A stretch of 64,000 nt of DNA from a virus (IMGVR_UViG_3300011429_000001:15962-79961), one strand, 5' to 3'; counted from the first letter of the stretch, positions 3,480-49,080 are shown. Translations and numbers: made by a program. Notes: generated by a model not told the origin, from the sequence alone.

Positions 3480-3920
3480 TTACACCATCCGCTCTAGGTT
3501 GAGATCCTTCGCGAGGTCGGCCGGGAGCGTCGAAACGGCCGCCATCAGCGGGCGTTCGAGATATTTCGGTCCGGTGCCGCTCGGCGAGAACGTCACCTGC
3601 ACGCCTTGCCACGATGGCGGCGAGTATTTCGACGGGTGCTCGTGGACCGCGAGCGCGTAGGCCGCGGCGGCGCCGCCGTAGCTTAGTTCGACGGTTACCT
3701 GTCGGCCGAGGTAGTACGGCGGCGAGACCTGCCCGCTGTTCTTCAGGGTCGAGAGATCGACCGGGACGTAGTTCTCCTTCGAGTCGGCCATGATTCGCTG
3801 CGCGCGGCGATACAGCGCACCGGCGACCATCGTGCCGAACTTCGCCTCAAGCGCCAGCAACCTCTTCGTGATGCCGTCGCCGGTGAACTTCCCCTTCGAG
3901 TCCCTACCCGTTATCGCCAT
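3480..3920 (-). CDS. HK97 gp10-like neck protein
   Basis: ADSKENYVPVDLSTLKNSG...YALAVHE...GPKYLERP motifs. Confidence 0.8.
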   Translation of the reverse strand: MAITGRDSKGKFTGDGITKRLLALEAKFGTMVAGALYRRAQRIMADSKENYVPVDLSTLKNSGQVSPPYYLGRQVTVELSYGGAAAAYALAVHEHPSKYSPPSWQGVQVTFSPSGTGPKYLERPLMAAVSTLPADLAKDLNLERMV

Positions 3921-4107
3921 CGGACCTCACGCTCGTGACGCCGCACTCGAACGCCGCCGCGACTTCGTTAAGCCGCGCCGCGACCGCCGGTTCTTCGTCG
4001 ATCGCGACCTCGCGGATCAACGCGGCGACCTCTCGACGGATGTCGGCCATCAACTCCGGCATCGACGTGATCGAGAGCTCGCCGCGTACCGGTTCGCGTG
4101 TATCCAT
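3904..4107 (-). CDS. Hypothetical protein
   Basis: 67 aa ORF coupled to neighbours. Confidence 0.6.
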   Translation of the reverse strand: MDTREPVRGELSITSMPELMADIRREVAALIREVAIDEEPAVAARLNEVAAAFECGVTSVRSDGDNG

Positions 4108-18561: not shown

Positions 18562-19268
18562 CGTCGACGCTCCCGCGGCGCGATGGCGAGGACGATCGAG
18601 CAGCGACAATTCGGATGCGCTGGCGGCGCCTTCAGCGGGCCGTTACGACTCGGGAAGGTCGCGTCCATCGGCACTGTAACGCCGTCGAGCGGCCGACAGA
18701 CGGGGCACGTGCGCTCGTCGCGCGCGGTCGACCACCGCTTCTGTTCCGTGCCGCGGAGGAGCCCGTCGCGGACCGCCTGCTCCCATTGTAGAAGCTGGCC
18801 CGCGTTACTCGCCGCGATCGTTTCCGTCCGCGCAATGAGGAGCGCGCGTTGTCGGAGCTGGCGCTCGGAGTATCGCTTCAGCGTCGCCTGCATCCGTTCT
18901 GGCGTGAGGCCGCCGGGCGGCACCTTCAAGACGCCGCGCGGCGCGCCAGGGATCTTCACGCTGACCGCGCGGCCGGTCTGCGTCGCGCGCGCCGCGGCGT
19001 CGAGCAATCGCCGCCTCGCGTTGAGGACCGCGTCGACTTGGTCCGGCCGGAGCCCGACGATCTGTTTGATAATCCGCGACGCCTCGCGCGGTGCGATACC
19101 TTCCTCGAACGCGCGGACGATGGCGCGGCGGATCCCTTCGCGCGTCTCGGCCGTCACCGACGTTACGAGCTCCGCGCTGTGGTTCCTCGCCCACTCGATG
19201 GCTTCCGGCATCGTGCGGTCGAAGGCCATCAGGCACGCTTGTCCAGCGGCCGTTCGGAGTTCGATCAC
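18558..19268 (-). CDS. MuF/SPP1 gp7-like head morphogenesis protein (C-terminal part)
   Basis: LIARTET...KRWSTARDERTCPVCRPLDG...PPAHPNCRC. Confidence 0.9.
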   Translation of the reverse strand: MIELRTAAGQACLMAFDRTMPEAIEWARNHSAELVTSVTAETREGIRRAIVRAFEEGIAPREASRIIKQIVGLRPDQVDAVLNARRRLLDAAARATQTGRAVSVKIPGAPRGVLKVPPGGLTPERMQATLKRYSERQLRQRALLIARTETIAASNAGQLLQWEQAVRDGLLRGTEQKRWSTARDERTCPVCRPLDGVTVPMDATFPSRNGPLKAPPAHPNCRCSIVLAIAPRERRR

Positions 19269-29118: not shown

Positions 29119-30804
29119 TTACCTTCTCGGTTGCGCCTTCGCGTTGCGCGCGCCGCCCCAGACACCGGCGACCGGCTTCTCGGGCTCGACCTCGCGCTCT
29201 TCTATGCCCGCATATATTACCCCCTCGCCGCGATCCGGCGAGCGTCCGATGCGTTTCTTGATATCTTCCTTCGACTCGACGCGGATGCCGCGGACGGTCA
29301 TCTCGAAGCGCGCGGCCGTTAGGTCGGCGCGCATCTGCGGGTCCGGCGGGAGCGCGACGTTGTGACCCTTCGACGGGTCGAGGAGCTCGCGCATACCCCA
29401 GTGCCACTTCGCGCGTTTGTTGACGAAGCGGATCTCGCCGGTCGAGTCCGTCGACTCCGTACCGTGCCCGCCGTGTAGCCCGATGACCTTCTTGTAGCCG
29501 AGGCCGACCAGCGAGTCCTTCGTCGACGCGCCCTCGGAGTCGGAGTCGATCTGAACGCGGACGTCCTTGTTCGGGACGTGCGTCGCGACGTGCTGCGCGC
29601 CCTCGGGTCCGGTCCTCATCCCGGTCGACCGCTGCGCGACCGGCTCGGCGAACCACGGGCCGTATCGCTTCACGATGACGAACTCGTCGCCGCCGCCCCA
29701 CGACGGGTCGATGCCGACCTGCGTCAGCGGCCAGCTTCCGGCGCCGTCCTCGGTCCACCGTGCCTGCGCCTTCAGGACCCAGTCCGTCGGAATTACCTGA
29801 CGCGGGTGATCTTGAATCGACGCGCCGAAGTTACCTGAGCCCAAATTCCGGAACCCTCCCGAGAGGCCGCCGAGCACCCTCGCGTAGCCGGTCCGCATGT
29901 ATGTCGGGTTGTCCTCTACCGACGATGGGATGAAGGTCCGACTCCGCGGCCAGGCGATTCTACCGCCGCACTCGGGACACTTCATCGGGTTACTCGTCAC
30001 GTCGTGCTTGCACTTCGGGTTGTCGCCGCCGAAGACGATCGCCTGCGGTCGACCGGCGCCGAACTTCGGACCCGGGATCTCGATGTCGACGTCGTTGTCG
30101 TCTGTGACGAACCAGCGGAGCTCGCCCGGCCCGGCAGGGTTCGGATGTCGAAGGTCGAGCCACGGTGCCCAGTAGCGGATGACCCACTCGCCCTCGGACG
30201 TCAGCGGCGGGTTGCCGGTACCGACGACGCGCGTGCGCTGTCCCTCGCGCGACGTGCGCAGCCACGCGATGAGGAGTCGATACGCGCCCTCTGGAATCTC
30301 TGGGATCTCGTCGAAGGCCTTCAGGTCGTGCGGTCGGCCGGACCACTTCAACCACTCGGAGATCGTCGCGCCGGTCTGACCGAACTCCAACTTGCGAGCG
30401 CCGGGCAGCCGCTCGAACATGTGCTTGTTCTGGTTGTAGCGGTCGCGGAGGCCGACCATCTCTTGCGCGACCGCGATGAGGCCCTCGGCGCCGGAGAACT
30501 GCGTGAACTCGCGGCGGAAGATGATCGAGTTCTTGTGCTTCGTCATCGCGAGGCCGAGCGCGAGCTGCGACTTGCCGCCGCCCGGGCCGCCGCCGAAGAA
30601 GAGCTCGTCGGCGAACGACTCGATCGCGAGCTCCTGAGGCGAGAGCACGCGGCCGTCCGGCATGTCGAAGCCGCGGCCCGGTTGTGCGGCGAGCGGCGTC
30701 CAGATCGGCGCAGCGTCGACGGCCGACGCGCCCGCGTCTTCGAGCTCTTGGATCGCCGCGCGCACCGCTTCGTGGAGCGGCGCCGCCGCTTGTCGTCTCG
30801 CCAT
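29119..30804 (-). CDS. Terminase large subunit
   Basis: Walker A FFGGGPGGGKS, Walker B KAFDEI, GTGNPP, nuclease GIDPSWGGGD and SPDRGE. Confidence 0.95.
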   Translation of the reverse strand: MARRQAAAPLHEAVRAAIQELEDAGASAVDAAPIWTPLAAQPGRGFDMPDGRVLSPQELAIESFADELFFGGGPGGGKSQLALGLAMTKHKNSIIFRREFTQFSGAEGLIAVAQEMVGLRDRYNQNKHMFERLPGARKLEFGQTGATISEWLKWSGRPHDLKAFDEIPEIPEGAYRLLIAWLRTSREGQRTRVVGTGNPPLTSEGEWVIRYWAPWLDLRHPNPAGPGELRWFVTDDNDVDIEIPGPKFGAGRPQAIVFGGDNPKCKHDVTSNPMKCPECGGRIAWPRSRTFIPSSVEDNPTYMRTGYARVLGGLSGGFRNLGSGNFGASIQDHPRQVIPTDWVLKAQARWTEDGAGSWPLTQVGIDPSWGGGDEFVIVKRYGPWFAEPVAQRSTGMRTGPEGAQHVATHVPNKDVRVQIDSDSEGASTKDSLVGLGYKKVIGLHGGHGTESTDSTGEIRFVNKRAKWHWGMRELLDPSKGHNVALPPDPQMRADLTAARFEMTVRGIRVESKEDIKKRIGRSPDRGEGVIYAGIEEREVEPEKPVAGVWGGARNAKAQPRR

Positions 30805-41462: not shown

Positions 41463-42200
41463 CTAGGTCCCGGTCTCCCGCTCAGGCGTGACGTCGATGG
41501 CGTCGAGGACGCCGAACCGCTTCTTGAGCGCCGCCGCGAGCGCCGTCCGGATCTCTGGCATCGACGCCGTGATGCCGATGATGTCGCCGACGAGGGCCGA
41601 GACGATCGACGCGACCTGCGACGTCGGGACGTAGCCCGCGTCAGGCTGCTGGTCGACGCCGAGGAGCTTCCTGCGGCTCTCGCCGTTCCGCCGGAGCTGC
41701 GACGCCGCGTCGAGCCGGAGGCGCGCGAGCGGCTCGGCCTTCACCGGGACGGTAACGGTCCGCTGCTTCTTCCCGCTCCCGACCTTGACCCTGTCGCCAG
41801 CGACCTCGCCGCGGGCGACGGGAAGGAGCTGGCGGTCTAGCTGGTCGAGGCGCGCGAGCTCCATCTGTAGCCAGTGCTGCTGCGTCTGGACGGTCTCGCG
41901 CGTCGTCTCGTCGGCCATCTCGTGGATGTCCTTGCAGACCGTCTTCGCCGTGCAGGGCATCTTGTTCGCCGAGAGGTAGTCGGCGATGGCCTGCATCGTC
42001 ATCCGCTCGTAGACGTAGAGGTGCCAGGCGAGCTTCTTCCGTTCGCGGCGCGCGGCCTCTTGGGTCGCCTCGGCCTTGTTCCCGCCTGTCGGCGTCAGCG
42101 GGCCTGGCGCCGTCCGACCGGGTCGGCGCTTTCCGGCTTTAGCATTACCGGGCTTGCGGCCGCGCTTCTTCTTCGTTACGGGACGAGTCCTCCGCGTCAT
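41463..42200 (-). CDS. Terminase small subunit-like HTH protein
   Basis: AWHLY...TMQAIADYL...TVCKDI HTH; ELARLDQL; RRKLLGVDQ. Confidence 0.75.
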   Translation of the reverse strand: MTRRTRPVTKKKRGRKPGNAKAGKRRPGRTAPGPLTPTGGNKAEATQEAARRERKKLAWHLYVYERMTMQAIADYLSANKMPCTAKTVCKDIHEMADETTRETVQTQQHWLQMELARLDQLDRQLLPVARGEVAGDRVKVGSGKKQRTVTVPVKAEPLARLRLDAASQLRRNGESRRKLLGVDQQPDAGYVPTSQVASIVSALVGDIIGITASMPEIRTALAAALKKRFGVLDAIDVTPERETGT

Positions 42201-42490
42201 CGCGGGTCCTTCACGCCGAGGATCTCCCGGCGAACGATGTCGCTGTCGATGAGCTCGCCGAGCTCGACGCCGGAGACCATCCGCTTGCCGTAGGTCCGGC
42301 CGTCCTTCCGGCAGGTATACCAGCTGCGCTCGTAGGCCTCGACGTCGCCGTCGAATCGGCGCGCGAGGACCCGCAGCGCGGTCGAGAGCTTGATGTCCCG
42401 AATCTTGGCGAGAGCTTCGAGCCGCCGTCTGGTCTCCTCGGGGAGCAGGCGCCAGCGCACGCGGTCGGCCTTCCTGAGCTTACCGGCCAT
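42197..42490 (-). CDS. Array paralog (UBA/RHH-like module)
   Basis: RVRWRLLPEE...LEALAK...ALRVLARRFDGDVE. Confidence 0.7.
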   Translation of the reverse strand: MAGKLRKADRVRWRLLPEETRRRLEALAKIRDIKLSTALRVLARRFDGDVEAYERSWYTCRKDGRTYGKRMVSGVELGELIDSDIVRREILGVKDPR

Positions 42491-42692
42491 GGCGGCCCTC
42501 CGGATCGTAGGTCGCGACGAGGCCCTGCGGACCGGCGACGTCGATGCGCTTCCGGCCGTCGAGCGCGTCCTGTTCGATCGCCGCGGCGAGCGCCTTCGCC
42601 GTCGACGTGCCAGCGAGCTTCCCGAGCCGCCGGATGACCGGTCGGAACCACGCCGGGACGAAGCGCATCCGGACCCTATCGGCTCGCGTCAT
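42480..42692 (-). CDS. Array paralog (RHH-like)
   Basis: GGAGGAG RBS; ADRVRMRFVP...LGKLAGTSTAKALAAAI. Confidence 0.65.
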   Translation of the reverse strand: MTRADRVRMRFVPAWFRPVIRRLGKLAGTSTAKALAAAIEQDALDGRKRIDVAGPQGLVATYDPEGRHGR

Positions 42693-42966
42693 CGACGCTC
42701 CTCCGGATGAAGTCAAGGAACCCTGGCTCTTCATCGCACTGGACGTCGTGCTCCGACGGACCGAGGACTACCTTGATGGCCGCCACGGCGCGCTGCTTCC
42801 GCCACGCGTTGTAGAGGATGTTGAACCGCTCGACGCTCCCGTCGCACATAACGAGCCCTTCGACGATGGTCTCGCGCGAGAAGATGCGGAGCGGCCACGC
42901 CTGTTCGACGACCTCCTTGCAGGTCGCCTCGACGAGACGACGGCGGACGGTCTCTGCTTGCGTCAC
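42676..42966 (-). CDS. Array paralog
   Basis: VRRRLVEA...EGLVMCDGSVERF; GTGA start. Confidence 0.65.
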   Translation of the reverse strand: MTQAETVRRRLVEATCKEVVEQAWPLRIFSRETIVEGLVMCDGSVERFNILYNAWRKQRAVAAIKVVLGPSEHDVQCDEEPGFLDFIRRSVDDASR

Positions 42967-43328
42967 GTCTTGCCCTTCTTGCGGAGCCGGTCGACGGTCT
43001 GCGCGGCGCGGAACTTCCGCGAGGCGTAGGGTCCGATCGACGCGATGGTGTTCCGCAGCTCGCCGGTGTCGATCGGCGTCCGCTGCTTCGTCTCCTCGAA
43101 GAGCTTCGCTGCGAGGTGTTCCAGTGCGGTTTCGAGTTTCTTCACCGTCGCCTCGACGTCGCCGCCGTCCTTCACGATGAAGTAGGCCGCCATCTCGGTG
43201 TCGCCGCCGAGCATCTGCGCGACCCTGGCGACTTCGGCCGGGCGCGCCGCGGTGAGCACGCGGATGGCGACGCGCGTCTCCTGCGACATTATGAGGACTT
43301 CGCCCTTCGCGCGGAGCTCGACCTTCAC
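42963..43328 (-). CDS. Array paralog with gp10-like tail motif
   Basis: VAQMLGG...KDGGDVEA; PIDTGELRNTI. Confidence 0.65.
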   Translation of the reverse strand: MKVELRAKGEVLIMSQETRVAIRVLTAARPAEVARVAQMLGGDTEMAAYFIVKDGGDVEATVKKLETALEHLAAKLFEETKQRTPIDTGELRNTIASIGPYASRKFRAAQTVDRLRKKGKT

Positions 43329-43804
43329 GGGAGTCCTTCCGGCCCGACGCATCGACAGTTCGGATGCGGCTCGACCTTCGGCGGAACATGGTCGCGATAG
43401 AGTTGCCCGGCGTCTCCGTCGTAGCGTTCGGCGAGCAACGTCAGCGCCTCGTCGAGCGTGATGTTGCCGAGGTCGACGGTCAGGCCGACCGTGTTCTTCT
43501 GAAGCCCGGAGAGCAATCGCCAGCGGACGGCGTTCTCCTTCGACACTTCCAGTGGTACACCGTTCGTGCGTCGGATGCGTTCGAGCAAGCGGGCGCACTT
43601 CGGTCTGTTCTCGAACCGCGTGCGATCGAAGGCGACGCCGTCGACGGCCGCGAGGATGAGCTCGACGTCGCCGTCGGCGAGGAGCAACGCCTCGATCGCG
43701 ACGTCGCTCGGGATCCCATGGTCGTTCTGGAGGCGATCGATCAACGGCTTGTTCGACGTTTCAAGGAGGCGGCGTCGGACGAGGTAGGGCGAGGTGCCGC
43801 TCAT
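43325..43804 (-). CDS. Array paralog, two modules, MuF-like tail motif
   Basis: VRRRLLE...EALLLADGDVE; VRWRLL...YDGDAG; PHPNCRC. Confidence 0.7.
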   Translation of the reverse strand: MSGTSPYLVRRRLLETSNKPLIDRLQNDHGIPSDVAIEALLLADGDVELILAAVDGVAFDRTRFENRPKCARLLERIRRTNGVPLEVSKENAVRWRLLSGLQKNTVGLTVDLGNITLDEALTLLAERYDGDAGQLYRDHVPPKVEPHPNCRCVGPEGLP

Positions 43805-44157
43805 GGCTTCTCCTGTCCGGTTAGCGCGAAGTGAACGTCTGCGAGGTAGGCCGGGAACTGCCGGTCGCCGGAGATGAGGCGGTCGGCGACGGCGCGCTCG
43901 GCGATCTCGGTGTTCGTTCCATCCGACGCGAGCTTACTCGGCCAGCCATTCGGCGGGTTCTTCCGCGACTCCTTCACGATGTTGTAGATGGCAGCGGCGC
44001 GGAACTCGTCGACGTCTCCGTTGTAGTCATGGACCAACGCGCGAACGGCGCGGCGCATCGGTAAGTCGCAGATCTCGCATACGAGGTGGACCGTCCGCTG
44101 CGCCCGCGGCGGAAGTAGTCTGAACGCGGCGTCGGCCGCGGCGCCTCGGAGCTTCAC
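43801..44157 (-). CDS. Array paralog
   Basis: FRLLP...RALVHDYNGDVDEF. Confidence 0.65.
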   Translation of the reverse strand: MKLRGAAADAAFRLLPPRAQRTVHLVCEICDLPMRRAVRALVHDYNGDVDEFRAAAIYNIVKESRKNPPNGWPSKLASDGTNTEIAERAVADRLISGDRQFPAYLADVHFALTGQEKP

Positions 44158-44408
44158 GATCGGATCCTCTTCTTCGCGTAGGTGACGAAGTCCTCGTAGC
44201 CACCGCCGACGCTACCGCCGCCCCACGCCGCGAAGAGGTCGAGGATCCGCATCGGCGGGTCCGGGTAGCCGTCGGCGAGTCGAACGAGGTCGACGATCAA
44301 CGACCGGTGTAGGTGCGTCTTCGCGTGCACGAGGCTGACGCCTTGACAGAAGGCCGCCTCGACGAGTCTCCGGCGCACGCGCTCGACGCGTCGCTCCTCC
44401 TGCGTCAC
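44154..44408 (-). CDS. Array paralog with C5-MTase motif-I-like tail
   Basis: VRRRLVEA...LADG; MRILDLFAAWGGGSVG. Confidence 0.65.
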   Translation of the reverse strand: MTQEERRVERVRRRLVEAAFCQGVSLVHAKTHLHRSLIVDLVRLADGYPDPPMRILDLFAAWGGGSVGGGYEDFVTYAKKRIRS

Positions 44409-44680
44409 AGTCTACGCTCCTTGATGAAGTCCATCAAGTGACGAGTCGCGCCGGGCGTACTCGCGCCAGGTCGTTTACCGGCGCCGAGCTCGTCGAGACG
44501 GAGCCATGCGTCGATCGCTCGGCCGAACCGCGCGCGGTCTCCGCCGACGGCGATCAGGATGTCGGCCGTGTCGTCCGGTTCCCAACCTACGACCGAGCGA
44601 CAGTGGTCGATCACGTCGCCGAAGTTCGCATACATAAGGCGACGACGGAGGCGGACCGCCGGAGAGAAGATGGCGGTCAT
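44405..44680 (-). CDS. Array paralog
   Basis: LRRRLM...VVGWEPD...VGGDRARF; ATGA start. Confidence 0.65.
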   Translation of the reverse strand: MTAIFSPAVRLRRRLMYANFGDVIDHCRSVVGWEPDDTADILIAVGGDRARFGRAIDAWLRLDELGAGKRPGASTPGATRHLMDFIKERRL

Positions 44681-45186
44681 AGCTTCGGCAGCGGTCGACG
44701 CCGTAGGTGCGTGATGAAGTCGGCGACCGGGCCGTGCTGTTTTCGCTTCGGGTCGACCCACTTCGCGAACTCGATCTGGAACTCCTCTGGGCTGCCGCAG
44801 AGTTCGAGGCACGTCACGATCTCGTTCTCCGGCCAATACTTCTCGACGCGCGCTGCGATGAAGTCCGCGTAGTTCGATCGGATCATCCGGCGCCGGACCT
44901 CCTTCGCGCGCGCCAGTTCCCGATCGCGCTCAGCGTGAAGCGCGGAGAGGAAGGACCGGAGCGCGTCGTGCCCGCGGCCGACGTCCGACGGCGGTACGTT
45001 CAGTGCCGCGATCCATTCCTTATGCGAGGCGCGGAGCCTCTCGACGTCGCCGTCGCAGACGAGGAGCATCTCGACGATGCTCTCCTTGTCCCAGCCCATC
45101 GTCTCGTGGAGCTCGTCGATGTATCGCCGGTGGATGGTCTCGACGAGCCGACGCGAGACGGCGCCTGCAGGGTTCGCGAACTTCAC
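44677..45186 (-). CDS. Array paralog, two modules
   Basis: SRRLVE...IDELHETMGWDKESIVEMLLVCDGDVERL; VRRRMI...CLELCGSPEEF. Confidence 0.7.
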   Translation of the reverse strand: MKFANPAGAVSRRLVETIHRRYIDELHETMGWDKESIVEMLLVCDGDVERLRASHKEWIAALNVPPSDVGRGHDALRSFLSALHAERDRELARAKEVRRRMIRSNYADFIAARVEKYWPENEIVTCLELCGSPEEFQIEFAKWVDPKRKQHGPVADFITHLRRRPLPKL

Positions 45187-45551
45187 GGCGTCGCCTCAGG
45201 AGTTGTTAACCGGTTAACGTCGACGCCCGCTCGGTCGAGCAAGGCGTAGCAGTCGAAGAGGAACGGTGCGCGGGCCATCCCGGCAGGGTCGGAGGCGATG
45301 CCGCGCGAGCGGCCGTAGACCTTTCGCCGCTGCGTCAACGACATCAGTCGTAGGATGTGCCCGAGCGCGATGCCGCAGCGGTCCTTGACCTTCGTCGCTT
45401 CGGCGATGCAGAAGTCGATGTGCCCGTCGTCCATGTTTCCGTCGTCGAGCGCGATGTGGAGCGGGCCGCCGTTCTCGTTGCCTTCCATCATGTAGTAGGC
45501 GTCCGAGAGGTAGACGACGTCTGGCACGGTCGGTCGCTTCGGGTTCTTCAT
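45183..45551 (-). CDS. Hypothetical protein embedded in the array (different family)
   Basis: GGPLHIALDDGN motif; lacks the array module. Confidence 0.65.
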   Translation of the reverse strand: MKNPKRPTVPDVVYLSDAYYMMEGNENGGPLHIALDDGNMDDGHIDFCIAEATKVKDRCGIALGHILRLMSLTQRRKVYGRSRGIASDPAGMARAPFLFDCYALLDRAGVDVNRLTTPEATP

Positions 45552-45865
45552 CGCTTCAACCGTTGGCCCATATCCATTCCGGCGAACCGGATCGCGTTCG
45601 AGACGAGGTCCCGCTCGTAGCTCGCGAGTACGCTCCGCTTCTGAACGTCGCGCGGGAACCGCGTCTTGATGGCGCTATACGCGCGCTGGATCGCCTCGCG
45701 CGTGCGTCCCTTGTATTGGAGGCACGCCACGAAGATCAGCGCGGCCGAGTTAAGTCCGATCTGGTAGTTGTTCGCGAGCTCGCGCACGAACTTGTCTTGC
45801 TCTAAGAGCCGGGCCTTGACGCGCCAGACCTCGTGGACGTCGACGGTCGACGTTATGCGGGACAC
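45548..45865 (-). CDS. Array paralog (divergent)
   Basis: VKARLLE...VRELANNYQIG...CLQYKG. Confidence 0.55.
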   Translation of the reverse strand: MSRITSTVDVHEVWRVKARLLEQDKFVRELANNYQIGLNSAALIFVACLQYKGRTREAIQRAYSAIKTRFPRDVQKRSVLASYERDLVSNAIRFAGMDMGQRLKR

Positions 45866-46176
45866 GACTCGGCCTTCTGCGCCTCGCGCACTTCGATCAT
45901 GTGAAGGACTAGCATCTCGGGGAAGCCGTTCCACTTCTCGCCGCTCGTGAAGATGCGCGCGACCCACGGAGGGTCGTCATCCATCGCGCGCTTGAGCGCG
46001 TACTCCGCGACGGCGACGTCGCCCTCGAAGACGGCGAGGACAAGGGCCGCGGTCGGCCGCCGGTAGTCGTCGGCCATCTCGTGAAGGATCCGCGCGAGCG
46101 TCTCGACGCCTTCAGGGTTCGCGCTCGCGACGAGCGCCGCCTGAACCTCAAGCACCCGCGCGTTTACGATACGCAC
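45853..46176 (-). CDS. Array paralog
   Basis: VQAALV...LVLAVFEGDVAVAE. Confidence 0.65.
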   Translation of the reverse strand: MRIVNARVLEVQAALVASANPEGVETLARILHEMADDYRRPTAALVLAVFEGDVAVAEYALKRAMDDDPPWVARIFTSGEKWNGFPEMLVLHMIEVREAQKAESCPA

Positions 46177-46517
46177 GTCACGACTCCGAGGTTGCGTGGC
46201 GCGACGACCTCGGCGCCGTAGTTCGAGATGCGATAGCGGAGCGCGTCGGCGGCGTCCTTCGCGTAGAGGCTTTTGCCGCCGCCCGGATTACCGCCGAATA
46301 GCATCGCTGCCTCACTGGTCTTCACCAGGTTGTCCGCGACGTCCTTCATCGCGCTCTCGATCGACGCCTCGGCGGCCTCGACGTTCCAGCCGTGAGCTTG
46401 GGCGAGCGCCATTACGACGCCCGCCGGGATCCGCGTGCGCTCCGAGACGACGCGAACCTCCGCGGCGATCAGCGCGCGGCGAACGACGTCGAGAGGATCC
46501 TCTGGTTGCTGCTTCAT
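46164..46517 (-). CDS. Array paralog with TerL Walker-A-like tail
   Basis: VRRALI..EVRVVSERTRIP...AHGWNVEAAE; LFGGNPGGGKS. Confidence 0.7.
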   Translation of the reverse strand: MKQQPEDPLDVVRRALIAAEVRVVSERTRIPAGVVMALAQAHGWNVEAAEASIESAMKDVADNLVKTSEAAMLFGGNPGGGKSLYAKDAADALRYRISNYGAEVVAPRNLGVVTCVS

Positions 46518-46536: not shown

Positions 46537-46758
46537 TCACTCTACGTTGATGTTCTCCGCGCGCGGTCCCTTGGCTCCGTGGCCGGACTCGTAGGTGACG
46601 CGGTCGCCTTCGTTGACGTCGCTGAAGGTCGCGTTCTGAAGCGCGGTGTGATGGAAGAAGATCTCGTCGCCGCCGCCCTCCGGCTCGATGAAGCCGAAGC
46701 CCTTCCGCTTACCGGTTGCCTTGTCGACGACGATGGTCTTGATCTTGCCTGCTGCCAT
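46537..46758 (-). CDS. cspA: Cold-shock domain protein
   Basis: KGFGFI (RNP1), IFFHHTAL (RNP2), EGDRVTYE...KGPRAENI. Confidence 0.95.
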   Translation of the reverse strand: MAAGKIKTIVVDKATGKRKGFGFIEPEGGGDEIFFHHTALQNATFSDVNEGDRVTYESGHGAKGPRAENINVE

Positions 46759-46781: not shown

Positions 46782-48197
46782 TCACGAATTATAACCGCCG
46801 CCGTAGCCGCTGTACTGCGGTCCGGGATCGCCGTCGGCCTCCGGCATCACGGCGAGGTTCGCCCACCGCGCTTGCTCCGAGATGAACGCGAGCTTCACCG
46901 TGCCGACCGGGCCGCCGCGGTTCTTCGCGATGATGACCTCCGCGATCCCTTGGACGGCCTCGTCGTTCGGCGTATACATTTCCTGTCGGAACAACAGCAT
47001 CACGAGGTCGGCGTCGAACTCCAACGCGCCGGACTCGCGGAGGTCCGATAGGTGCGGGCGCTTGTCGTTGCGCTTCTCGGCGTCGCGGCCGAGCGCGGCG
47101 ACGGCGACCATCGCGATGTCCTCGTGCTTCGCGAGCGTCTTTAAGCCGCGCGAGATCGTCGCGACCTCCTGCTGTCGATCCCTCGCCGCCGGGTTCCCCA
47201 TCAACTGGAGGTAGTCGAGGAAGAGGAGCCGGACGCCGTACTTGTCGCGCAGCCGACGCGCCCACGCCGAGAGTTGCGTCAGCGTGTTCGCCGAGCTCAC
47301 GAAGTAGAGCGGCCGGTCGGCGAGCTTCCCGATCGCCGCCGTCACCTGCGCCCATCCACGCTCGTCGACGAGGCGACGACGGACGCGGTCCGGTGAGACC
47401 TTCGAGTGCGCGGCGACGAGGTTCCCAGCGAGCGTCTCGTCGTCCATCTCCAGCGTAATGTAGCCGACCGGTTCGTTGCGAGCGGTGACGAGGTCGGCGA
47501 TCGACGTGATGAGGCTGCTCTTACCGACGCTCGGCCGCGCCGCGACGATCGACAACTTCTTGCGCTCGAAGCCGCCGACCATGCTGTCGACGTCGGTGAG
47601 GCCGGTCAGAATGCCGGGCGCCTTGTCGGAGACCAGCGTATCGGTATACGACTTCAGTGCATCGTTGAGCGACCGCTCGCCGACCGCACCAGTGTCGGCG
47701 AGCTTCAGCAACGCGTTGACGCCTTCCTCGATGACGAGGTTGGCCGACTGGTCCGCCTCGTACGCGGCGCCGAGCAAGCGATTGGCTGCGAAGATGGCGA
47801 GCCGCAGCCGCGACTTCTCGCGCACGACCTCGCAGTAGTAGACGACGTTCGTCGAGCGCGGCACGCCGTCGACGAGGGAGGCGAGGTAGGCCGGGCCGCC
47901 GACTTCTTCGAGGTCGCCTTCCTGTTCGAGATCCTCCTTGAGGAGCACGAGGTCGAGTGGCTTGCTCGCCTGCGCCAACCGCTCCAGCCCGCGGAAGATG
48001 CGCTTGTGCGCGTCGCGGAAGAAGTCGTCGGCCGTCACGAGGAGCGCGATGTCCGTCCACGTCGAGTTCTCGATCATCGCCGCGCCGAAGATGCTGCGCT
48101 CGGCTTCGAGGTTGTACGGCAACGTCCGCTGTTGCGCCGCGTCGTGCGGCGGCGGGTCCGGGCGCGGATCGTCTTTTACTTCTGCTGCGTCGGCCAC
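46782..48197 (-). CDS. dnaB: Replicative DNA helicase
   Basis: LPYNLEAERS; AARPSVGKS; LDYLQLM; RPHLSDLRESGALEFDAD; KNRGGP; true start is the GTG at 48197. Confidence 0.96.
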   Translation of the reverse strand: MADAAEVKDDPRPDPPPHDAAQQRTLPYNLEAERSIFGAAMIENSTWTDIALLVTADDFFRDAHKRIFRGLERLAQASKPLDLVLLKEDLEQEGDLEEVGGPAYLASLVDGVPRSTNVVYYCEVVREKSRLRLAIFAANRLLGAAYEADQSANLVIEEGVNALLKLADTGAVGERSLNDALKSYTDTLVSDKAPGILTGLTDVDSMVGGFERKKLSIVAARPSVGKSSLITSIADLVTARNEPVGYITLEMDDETLAGNLVAAHSKVSPDRVRRRLVDERGWAQVTAAIGKLADRPLYFVSSANTLTQLSAWARRLRDKYGVRLLFLDYLQLMGNPAARDRQQEVATISRGLKTLAKHEDIAMVAVAALGRDAEKRNDKRPHLSDLRESGALEFDADLVMLLFRQEMYTPNDEAVQGIAEVIIAKNRGGPVGTVKLAFISEQARWANLAVMPEADGDPGPQYSGYGGGYNS

Positions 48198-48529
48198 TCG
48201 ATGATCTCCGGTGCGCGTTTCCGCGGGCGCCAAATGTGGAGCTCGCGTCGACAATGCTTCGACCACTTCACTTCGCCGAACGCCTTCTCTGCGTCCTTTA
48301 TCAGCGTCGCCGTCGGCTTGCCTCCGCCCTTCGTCTGGACGAAGACCGGTACGTCGACCGCGAGGTAGAGGAGGTCGCTGCCGAATTGATCCTTCTTCGT
48401 CGTGAAGACGCCGTTCGGCGTGTGGTTCGTTCGGACGATCTCCATGTCGGCGACCGGGTGGCCGCGTTCGAGGAGCCAGTCCTTGCTTCGCTTCTTGTAG
48501 TAGGCGCCGCGCGAGGAGTTGCTCGACAC
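48176..48529 (-). CDS. PD-(D/E)xK nuclease, Holliday-junction-resolvase-like
   Basis: RGAYY...WL...DQFGSDLL...FVQTK. Confidence 0.7.
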   Translation of the reverse strand: MSSNSSRGAYYKKRSKDWLLERGHPVADMEIVRTNHTPNGVFTTKKDQFGSDLLYLAVDVPVFVQTKGGGKPTATLIKDAEKAFGEVKWSKHCRRELHIWRPRKRAPEIIEWPTQQK

Positions 48530-49080
48530 TACAACCCCCTGCGCTTCCAGTCGGCGGCGATCTCGTACGCGCCGACCGGCGGCCGACCGAGCGGGCCGCG
48601 CGCAAACACCGATCGTCGAGCTCGACGCACGGCGCCGCGCATAAAGCGGCGCGCCCTAGCGACGTTCGTCGGGTCGTTATACCAGCGATTGATGCCGGAC
48701 GGATGCGGCATCACGACGACGTCGGCCGCGCCGATGCGCCGCTTCGCGAAGTAGACGTCGCGCACGCCGAACGCCGCGGCGGTCCGGTGCCCGAGCAGGA
48801 TGACGAGACGGCCGCGCACGAACTTCGTCGCGAGCCGCTCTGCACCGCGCCTAGCCTCGACCATCGGGAACTGCGCGCCCTTCGAGGCGCCGGGACCGGG
48901 CCACGCGTCGAGCACGTTGGCGCGGGCGAAGAGGCGAAGGAACTCTGTGATGTCGACGCCGCCGAGCGCGGCGAGGATCGACCCGCAGCGACCATCGATC
49001 GGACGGTTCAGCATGCCGGTGCGGTTCGGCGCCTCGCCGATGACGAGCGGGCGCGGCTCAGATTGGGACGGCGTTCGCAT
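48529..49080 (-). CDS. Uracil-DNA glycosylase superfamily protein
   Basis: VIGEAP (motif A), ILLG, MPHPSG (motif B). Confidence 0.82.
   Translation of the reverse strand: MRTPSQSEPRPLVIGEAPNRTGMLNRPIDGRCGSILAALGGVDITEFLRLFARANVLDAWPGPGASKGAQFPMVEARRGAERLATKFVRGRLVILLGHRTAAAFGVRDVYFAKRRIGAADVVVMPHPSGINRWYNDPTNVARARRFMRGAVRRARRSVFARGPLGRPPVGAYEIAADWKRRGL

Follow-up and report, generated by a model that had tools for sequence, protein, structure and literature searches.

Organization of the array

This study concerns an array of small genes in a virus, contained in a 64,000-nucleotide stretch of DNA (IMGVR_UViG_3300011429_000001:15962-79961) that we analyzed as a whole and refer to as the window. 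The source record is a 100,629-bp virus with direct terminal repeats that is rated complete, and the window comprises its bases 15962-79961. The guanine-plus-cytosine (GC) content is 65%, and the minus strand holds essentially all genes. The array consists of 13 small minus-strand genes, here called g1 to g13, which run from position 46517 down to 42197 and are tightly packed, with overlapping start and stop codons throughout (ATGA, GTGA). Three of these genes, g1, g9, and g10, carry short stretches that resemble the large terminase (TerL), a MuF-like minor head protein, and a Neck1 / tail-completion protein, respectively, and the origin of these stretches is our main subject.

The array is placed in the replication or early block of the genome. 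A cold-shock-domain gene (46537..46758, minus strand) and dnaB lie upstream, and a conserved gene of 245 amino acids (41463..42200, minus strand) lies downstream. No sigma-70-like promoter was found at the array, and terminator-like sites occur there at chance level; therefore, one long transcript across the array is likely. From the position in the replication block we assume that the array proteins are expressed early.

The TerL protein of this phage (29119..30804, minus strand) has ~37-40% identity to its counterparts in Acidovorax phage AP1 and Bordetella phage BPP-1. Among 50,697 deposited phage records there is no close relative, and a DNA search of these records with the array was also without a match. 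Related arrays were found on a 97-kb JGI contig (L001/L002), a 13-kb ENA contig (L003, of which L005 is a near copy), the Logan contigs L006, L007, L008, and L016, a more distant 12-kb contig (L015), and a 91-kb JGI contig (L018/L019) whose TerL is 69% identical. The order of cold-shock gene, array, and 245-amino-acid gene is complete in L001, L003, L015, and L019. Among the short contigs, L007 and L008 keep only the end with the cold-shock gene, L005 keeps only the end with the 245-amino-acid gene, and L006 and L016 include neither flank. Scans of IMG/VR with g9 and with the 245-amino-acid flank revealed no relatives, and a metagenome scan with the same flank returned one short contig only, a near copy of L003. 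On the 98-kb contig of another TerL homologue (P0083), the gene order upstream of TerL differs, and there is no array in the 10 kb that were read.

A family of small proteins

An N-terminal signature (V-R-R-R-L-V-E, G-W, D-G-D-V-E) is common to 12 of the array genes, in 14 domain copies, as g5 and g9 have two each. In typical members, this signature is followed by a fourth helix that contains Trp, a variable linker rich in Gly and Pro, and a helix with F-L-x-F-V-R at the C terminus, such that the full signature of these ~90-amino-acid proteins reads AVRRRLVE..GW..D.L..DGD..W..linker..FLxFVR. A profile of the typical members recognizes g5, g6, g7, g9, and g11 strongly (E 1e-14 to 1e-32), g2, g10, g12, and g13 weakly (E about 1e-3), and g1, g3, and g8 marginally (E 0.05 to 0.26), whereas g4 and everything outside the array in this genome go unrecognized. 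Thus, there are five clear family members in the array and seven that are more distant or doubtful.

The typical members with a single domain are g6 (91 amino acids, 44405..44680), g7 (84 amino acids, 44154..44408), and g11 (96 amino acids, 42676..42966), and g5 (169 amino acids, 44677..45186) joins two family domains in one protein. More distant are g2 (107 amino acids, 45853..46176), whose start overlaps the g1 stop, g12 (70 amino acids, 42480..42692), and g13 (97 amino acids, 42197..42490), which is the last array gene. We regard g8 (118 amino acids, 43801..44157) as distant or doubtful and g3 (105 amino acids, 45548..45865) as very distant or doubtful.

The family appears to be new. Searching 1.84 billion representative proteins with the family profile yielded 63 clusters only, nearly all of them 80 to 110 amino acids long. 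Neither Pfam nor PHROGs has a model for it; the best match, to UBA_2, is below threshold (20.1 bits for g5, against a cut-off of 23) and occurs in two of the 66 array proteins collected from all loci. An AlphaFold2 model of g11 made with 52 homologues has five helices and a short hairpin (predicted local distance difference test score, pLDDT, 83.7; predicted template modeling score, pTM, 0.72). Fold searches with this model (PDB Foldseek, VIA wide, AlphaFold DB clusters, and Atlas) gave only weak, generic helical matches, with Foldseek E >1 and Z <=5.7, and these correspond to ECF sigma region 2, an AAA lid, and UBA. We therefore describe an unannotated family of small phage proteins, comprising 63 clusters and confined to one lineage of uncultivated phages of roughly 90-100 kb.

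We also considered whether the proteins are leader/core precursors like those of ribosomally synthesized and post-translationally modified peptides. We reject this idea, since conservation extends to the C-terminal helix, which packs into the modeled fold.

Two further resemblances to the family lie outside the array. DnaB (46785-48710, minus strand) contains R-V-R-R-R-L-V-D-E-R-G-W, which is similar to the N-terminal signature and has the 7-mer RVRRRLV in common with g7; this stretch is in the normal DnaB linker region, and the likeness is probably due to chance. An open reading frame (ORF) of 187 amino acids at genome positions 91893-92453 (minus strand), outside the window, gives the best within-genome short alignment to g5, via V-R-R-R-M (33 bits, higher than any of 200 shuffles). 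With the family profile, this ORF is not recognized (E 4.2).

A neck-protein segment in g10

The original prediction pointed to four peptides in the C-terminal tails of array genes that look like motifs of well-known proteins. All four, together with the two motifs of the phage's own proteins to which they were compared, translate exactly on the minus strand at their reported positions. One of the peptides, PIDTGELRNTI (43044-43076), was likened to HK97-gp10, and this comparison is borne out by profile searches. It is situated in g10 (121 amino acids, 42963..43328, minus strand), behind a marginally family-like N-terminal part. The top Pfam match of g10 in hmmscan is HK97-gp10_like (PF04883), with residues 60-97 (43038-43151) aligned to profile positions 13-51 (21.3 bits, E 5.5e-4). 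In a six-frame search that takes in neighboring residues, the score is 21.8 bits and thus over the gathering cut-off of 21.4 bits. HK97-gp10_like is also the top Pfam match in all three orthologues tested, above the cut-off in L006 (25.8 bits) and below it in L001 (18.6 bits) and L003 (17.9 bits), with E values of 2e-5 to 6e-3 for these proteins and the g10 of the window. A search of the whole genome with PF04883 finds g10 only.

Matches to PHROG families for Neck1 / tail-completion proteins (phrog_5, phrog_169, and phrog_927) point in the same direction, and the g10-type protein of L015, which was scanned against PHROGs only, has phrog_169 as its top match (E 7.6e-4). The sequence T-P-(I/V)-D-T-G-x-L-R is kept in the g10 orthologues of L001, L003, L006, and L015. 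When all 66 array proteins were screened against Pfam and PHROGs, the g10 group gave the sole recurrent signal of a virion protein, consisting of HK97-gp10_like in Pfam and, in PHROGs, the Neck1 families together with a match of the L015 g10-type protein to phrog_556. The other virion-type match in this screen is a single one to a minor tail protein (E 0.003).

The phage has a separate full-length Neck1 protein (3483..3926, minus strand; phrog_5, E 1.6e-5), which is itself below detection by the Pfam model PF04883. Like the corresponding part of HK97-gp10_like and Neck1 proteins, the g10 segment is formed by a long helix followed by P-x-D-T-G-x-L-R, and it can be aligned to residues 37-71 of the phage's own Neck1 with identity at 10 of 35 positions (E 0.019). 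The motif of that Neck1 reads V-P-V-D-L-S-T-L-K-N-S (VPVDLSTLKNS), so that the g10 tail is nearer to the family consensus than to the Neck1 of its own genome, and it is not a recent self-capture. Unlike a genuine neck protein, g10 has about half of the 78-position domain (positions 13-55 only are matched, in g10 and its orthologues), and this half is preceded by a helical part to which it is unrelated; the gene is also in the replication block and not in the head-tail module. A homologue search with the g10 tail alone returned only g10 itself, and a PDB profile search with the g10 alignment returned nothing relevant. Judging by these profile and sequence comparisons, a chimera of a family-like N-terminal part and a virion-type stretch is statistically solid for g10, and for g10 only.

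That g10 could be the real Neck1 of this phage was also considered, and is rejected in view of the full-length Neck1 elsewhere.

A MuF-type end in g9

The second gene, g9 (159 amino acids, 43325..43804, minus strand), comprises two family domains and has HPNCRC (43349-43366) near its C terminus. The same six residues occur in the MuF-like minor head protein of the phage (18558..19238, minus strand) at 18600-18617, and the proposal that g9 shares them with MuF holds up. The match is exact, and so are those of the orthologues P0007 and P0011, with the longer HPNCRCVGP kept in all. Under a residue-frequency model, 56 six-mers in the 30,072-amino-acid proteome are as improbable as HPNCRC, and 2.8e-5 of them are expected to be shared with the array.

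The orthologues also reveal how g9 arose. In L006, its second half (P0011) is a stand-alone gene of 87 amino acids beside a separate g9a-type gene of 83 amino acids (L006:2213-2724), and therefore the g9 of the window is an in-frame fusion of two neighbors. L003 contains the first half only, as a gene of 85 amino acids, and P0007 is a 90-amino-acid protein of the second-half type on a 764-bp contig.

The resemblance to MuF (SPP1 gp7-like, PF04233) extends to the position of HPNCRC near the C terminus and to the prolines before it, features found alike in the MuF proteins of this phage and of the L018 phage, the latter of which contains HPNCRC as well; we take this sequence to be a general MuF consensus. 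However, only ~10 residues are alike, and the C-x-x-C that lies upstream in the phage's MuF is absent from g9. When the genome is searched with PF04233, the real MuF is the only match. The 16-of-18 nucleotide identity between the g9 and MuF motifs, which had been put forward as a signal, is uninformative, as third codon positions match in four of six cases, compared with 3.7 expected for identical peptides, and the flanks are unlike.

A terminase-like loop in g1

The third gene, g1 (117 amino acids, 46164..46517, minus strand), follows the cold-shock-domain gene as the first of the array, and its membership of the family is marginal. Its loop LFGGNPGGGKS (46269-46301) had been compared to the TerL Walker A motif FFGGGPGGGKS (30568-30600), and eight of nine loop residues are identical (GG-PGGGKS), or nine of nine in orthologues that have GGGPGGGKS. 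By shuffling, 0.064 of the 13 genes would be expected to have a Walker A pattern. Gly-rich 9-mers of this kind number two in the 30,072-amino-acid proteome, and one of these is the TerL loop. With a P-loop-segment profile made from 103 TerL sequences (the phage's own and homologues), g1 and its orthologues score 13-17.6 bits, beyond the maximum of 9.2 bits in 2000 shuffles, although the alignment spans 14-17 residues only. The likeness to TerL is in this respect upheld, and five orthologues keep the loop: GG(G/N)PGGGK is invariant in six sequences, including g1, down to 38% identity. The complete Walker A pattern G-x4-G-K-[ST] is present in g1, P0006, P0009, P0010, and the L001 orthologue. Loop codons vary synonymously among orthologues (for example, GGC GGA GGA CCC GGA GGA GGG in L007).

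Among 120 metagenomic TerL homologues, GGGPGGGKS occurs in seven, all of which are among the closest relatives (>=70% identity), whereas the TerL loop is GG(A/S)AGGGKT in the four named phages that were checked (Acidovorax AP1, Bordetella BPP-1, Acinetobacter 4316, and Caulobacter SR18). The g1 loop therefore corresponds to this lineage's own TerL variant and not to a generic P-loop. We observe that the TerL clade as a whole (homologues P0075-P0194) has an unusually Gly-rich Walker A motif, GG(A/G/S)(P/G/A)GGGK(S/T), whose exact variant tracks phylogeny.

Although the loop thus matches a variant of the large terminase Walker A motif (of the Terminase_6N clade related to Bordetella phage BPP-1), g1 lacks other parts of a terminase ATPase. 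The protein ends 34 residues past the loop, with no Walker B motif and no ATPase fold, and the genome has no Terminase_6N match outside TerL. An Atlas feature search with g1 found clusters of AAA fragments below trust level (<=0.81). The 14-mer common to g1 and TerL, which had been offered as further evidence, carries no weight given the 792 same-strand pairs of identical 14-mers in the genome. Gene conversion between TerL and g1 was also considered, and it receives no support from the codons.

A gapped blastp-short search of each array protein against the phage's own proteome, with shuffled controls as had been suggested, does place TerL and MuF at the top for g1 and g9, but with p values of only ~0.045 and ~0.07. 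Taken alone, the within-genome sequence resemblance of these two genes is therefore modest.

A substantial, though less likely, alternative is that only g10 contains a true fragment, and that the g1 loop (a flexible Gly-rich hinge or phosphate loop) and the HPNCRC of g9 (a Cys/His metal-binding end) are independent short functional motifs that happen to coincide with famous ones. Family linkers are generally Gly/Pro-rich, and g7 also has a run of Gly before its C-terminal helix; moreover, the residues that follow the g1 loop (DFQYRV, in orthologues) resemble the C-terminal helix of the family. The shortness of the TerL profile matches, the lack of any significant match to a MuF or P-loop model, the p values of 0.045-0.07 in the gapped whole-proteome search, and the loss of the g1 loop in L019 are all consistent with such a coincidence. 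However, sharing of an exact 6-mer as rare as HPNCRC is expected only ~3e-5 times, the g1 loop has the form particular to the TerL of this lineage and not that of Walker A motifs in general, and comparable Gly-rich 9-mers are otherwise nearly absent from the proteome.

A chance look-alike in g7

The fourth peptide, at 44205-44252 in g7, had been thought to resemble motif I of C5-methyltransferases, and this proposal fails. The stretch reads F-A-A-W-G-G-G and thus has no F-x-G-x-G core, g7 and its orthologues have no match in Pfam, and PF00145 is found nowhere in the genome. Instead, R-I-L-D-L-F-A-A-W aligns with helix 4 of the family (R-F-N-x-x-Y-N-A-W) and is followed by the Gly-rich linker. 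The stretch is not conserved, as it decays to V-I-L-G-L-Y-D-A-W-G-G-G-V-G in L006 and to R-V-L-A-L-W-W-A-W-S-K-A in L015. By these comparisons, the resemblance to methyltransferases is one of chance.

Evolution of the array

Arrays in the related phages have 10 to 18 genes, and their content and order vary. The motif-bearing genes are inherited as whole units across these relatives. Tails differ between paralogues and not between orthologues, and, within orthologue pairs, the N-terminal part and the tail diverge at similar rates. The array changes by duplication, loss, reordering, and fusion of genes, and the C-terminal part that belongs to a given gene stays with it across related phages.

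These observations bear on the proposal that the array is a protein-level counterpart of a repeat-spacer array that goes on capturing fragments, whether of the phage's own genes or of others. Such a process would account for tails that differ between paralogues, and the more distant L019 does have additions that differ from those on array genes in the window: one array gene has a beta-rich tail of ~90 amino acids, and another has an N-terminal Cys/His-rich extension with C-G-H ... C-P-I-C (L019:7393-7848 and L019:9690-9992). However, different captured motifs at the same position in related genomes, for which the original prediction had suggested a check, were not observed. Instead, the same motif sits on the same gene in L001, L003, L006, L015, and the small contigs, and tails are invariant across homologues, the outcome that the original prediction itself had named as contrary to it. 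Because tails travel unchanged with their genes in related phages, and in step with the divergence of the N-terminal parts, capture of the repeat-spacer kind is unsupported. Identity to the putative donor DNA is not above what codon bias produces, and so there is no footprint of recombination with the phage's own genes. The 66 array proteins yield no further fragment matches, and most members end in the common family helix. We consider continuing capture the least probable of the explanations discussed here. What survives of the idea of a scaffold bearing foreign fragments is that some array genes are chimeras.

The array might be compared to two known kinds of loci. Polymorphic toxin loci have a constant N-terminal part and C-terminal cassettes that are swapped by recombination (PMC3482391), and the array likewise has tandem genes with a shared N-terminal part and differing C-terminal ends; but it has no spare cassettes and no toxin or immunity domains, and its tails are stable across relatives. 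The second kind comprises the lineage-specific paralogous arrays in which large phages keep small accessory or early genes; here, too, the genes are tandem, tightly packed, fast-diverging, unannotated, and restricted to one phage lineage. The present array differs in that its family has no Pfam or PHROG model and that morphogenesis proteins are represented, by fragments or motifs, in three of its members. The data support the view that this lineage-specific paralogue family has evolved in an ordinary manner, with the addition of a few old chimeric events kept by selection.

Interpretation of the virion-type segments

We lean toward the view that g1, g9, and g10 are old, rare chimeras, or contain old insertions, that have been kept by purifying selection within a lineage-restricted array of paralogues. 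On the best reading, the segment in g10 is the N-terminal helix plus strand of a Neck1 / HK97-gp10 protein, g9 has a MuF-type HPNCRC end, and g1 has a TerL-type loop. At least one family member is a stable chimera that includes part of a neck protein, and two more retain hallmark motifs of MuF and TerL under selection.

Several observations weigh against this interpretation. Membership of two of the three genes in the core family is only marginal by profile (E 0.048 for g1, 0.003 for g10). No match of g9 or its orthologues to PF04233 is obtained at E up to 10, and the best PHROG match, to phrog_1657 (MuF-like), has E 0.34-0.65. For g1, matches to P-loop families in Pfam are insignificant, the L015 loop has Gln in place of Ser (K-Q), which breaks the Walker A pattern, and the L019 orthologue (32% identical) lacks the loop altogether. 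In a shallow AlphaFold2 model of g1, the loop lies between helices and not in a strand-loop-helix arrangement, with pLDDT <50 for residues 75-85; as far as this model goes, it agrees better with a loop that is exposed and flexible than with the core of a folded ATPase.

If the three genes are indeed chimeras, the fragments probably arose by rare in-frame illegitimate recombination or insertion, as opposed to dedicated capture. The small array proteins probably act as stoichiometric binders. Through the borrowed segments, three of them may engage either the factors that these segments usually meet at the portal-neck-packaging vertex or small ligands, for example phosphate or metal. Binding of this kind could restrain assembly factors early in infection, or compete with a factor that recognizes them. 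Our description of the array and its chimeric genes has good support; that the segments are small docking or ligand-binding elements borrowed from proteins of this vertex is a guess in which we place low confidence.

The original prediction also raised the idea that the tails are decoys. In its general form, this explanation holds that a common scaffold presents, through the tails, those motifs of packaging and neck proteins that are least free to mutate, and does so in excess and at an early stage, to soak up a factor of the host or of a rival element that recognizes these motifs. Three conserved motifs from head, neck, and packaging proteins, the location of the array in the replication block upstream of structural genes, and the modeled exposure and flexibility of the g1 loop all accord with it, and sensors that read short motifs do exist: a 2026 survey describes Lit and CapRel as reading short motifs of the major capsid protein, whereas Avs sensors recognize core phage proteins through extended shape complementarity (PMC13581612). 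Since Avs sensors read extended surfaces and not short motifs, an Avs decoy of 6-14 residues is unlikely. In addition, a copy of a motif would be expected to trigger an activating sensor and not to block it, the g10 motif differs from that of the phage's own Neck1, the L019 phage retains the TerL loop yet lacks the g1 loop, and no match to a defense or anti-defense family was found. Overall, we regard decoys as unlikely. A more specific version, in which a TerL P-loop, a MuF HPNCRC end, and a Neck1 helix-strand on a small scaffold are non-activating competitors for host or rival factors that read short virion motifs, would be a decoy set not described so far, and we rate it as slightly less probable again.

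The portal vertex is the site of action of SPP1 gp7, TerL, and neck proteins, and thus of all three presumed donor families. Segments from these families might serve as tags that dock array proteins at this vertex, so that the array proteins are encapsidated and then delivered together with the DNA, as internal head proteins are. An association with packaging, and the carriage of fused cargo into phage heads, have been ascribed to the MuF domain (PMC3482391). However, only 6-40 residues have been borrowed, and segments of this kind occur in just three of the 13 genes. This idea is purely conjectural, and we consider it very improbable.

Whichever function applies, chimeras kept by selection remain our preferred explanation, and their significance depends on whether the segments are mimics. 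If they are, the array would offer a compact case from nature in which core virion proteins are mimicked at the level of motifs, with a bearing on the regulation of phage assembly or on the evasion of defenses that read motifs. If they are not, the array provides a caution that short look-alikes in GC-rich phage genes need to be checked with orthologues and profiles: one of four look-alikes here is pure coincidence, and shared DNA was uninformative.

Other genes of the locus

The array includes one gene that does not belong to the family, g4 (122 amino acids, 45183..45551, minus strand), which is conserved in L001 and L003. It has no match in Pfam or PHROGs, and its middle is acidic and rich in His and Asp (HIALDDGNMDDGHIDFC). 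The 245-amino-acid gene that forms the conserved downstream flank matches phrog_645, which is annotated as 'Rnase E', at E 1.8e-7, and the middle of its product has the appearance of a helix-turn-helix.

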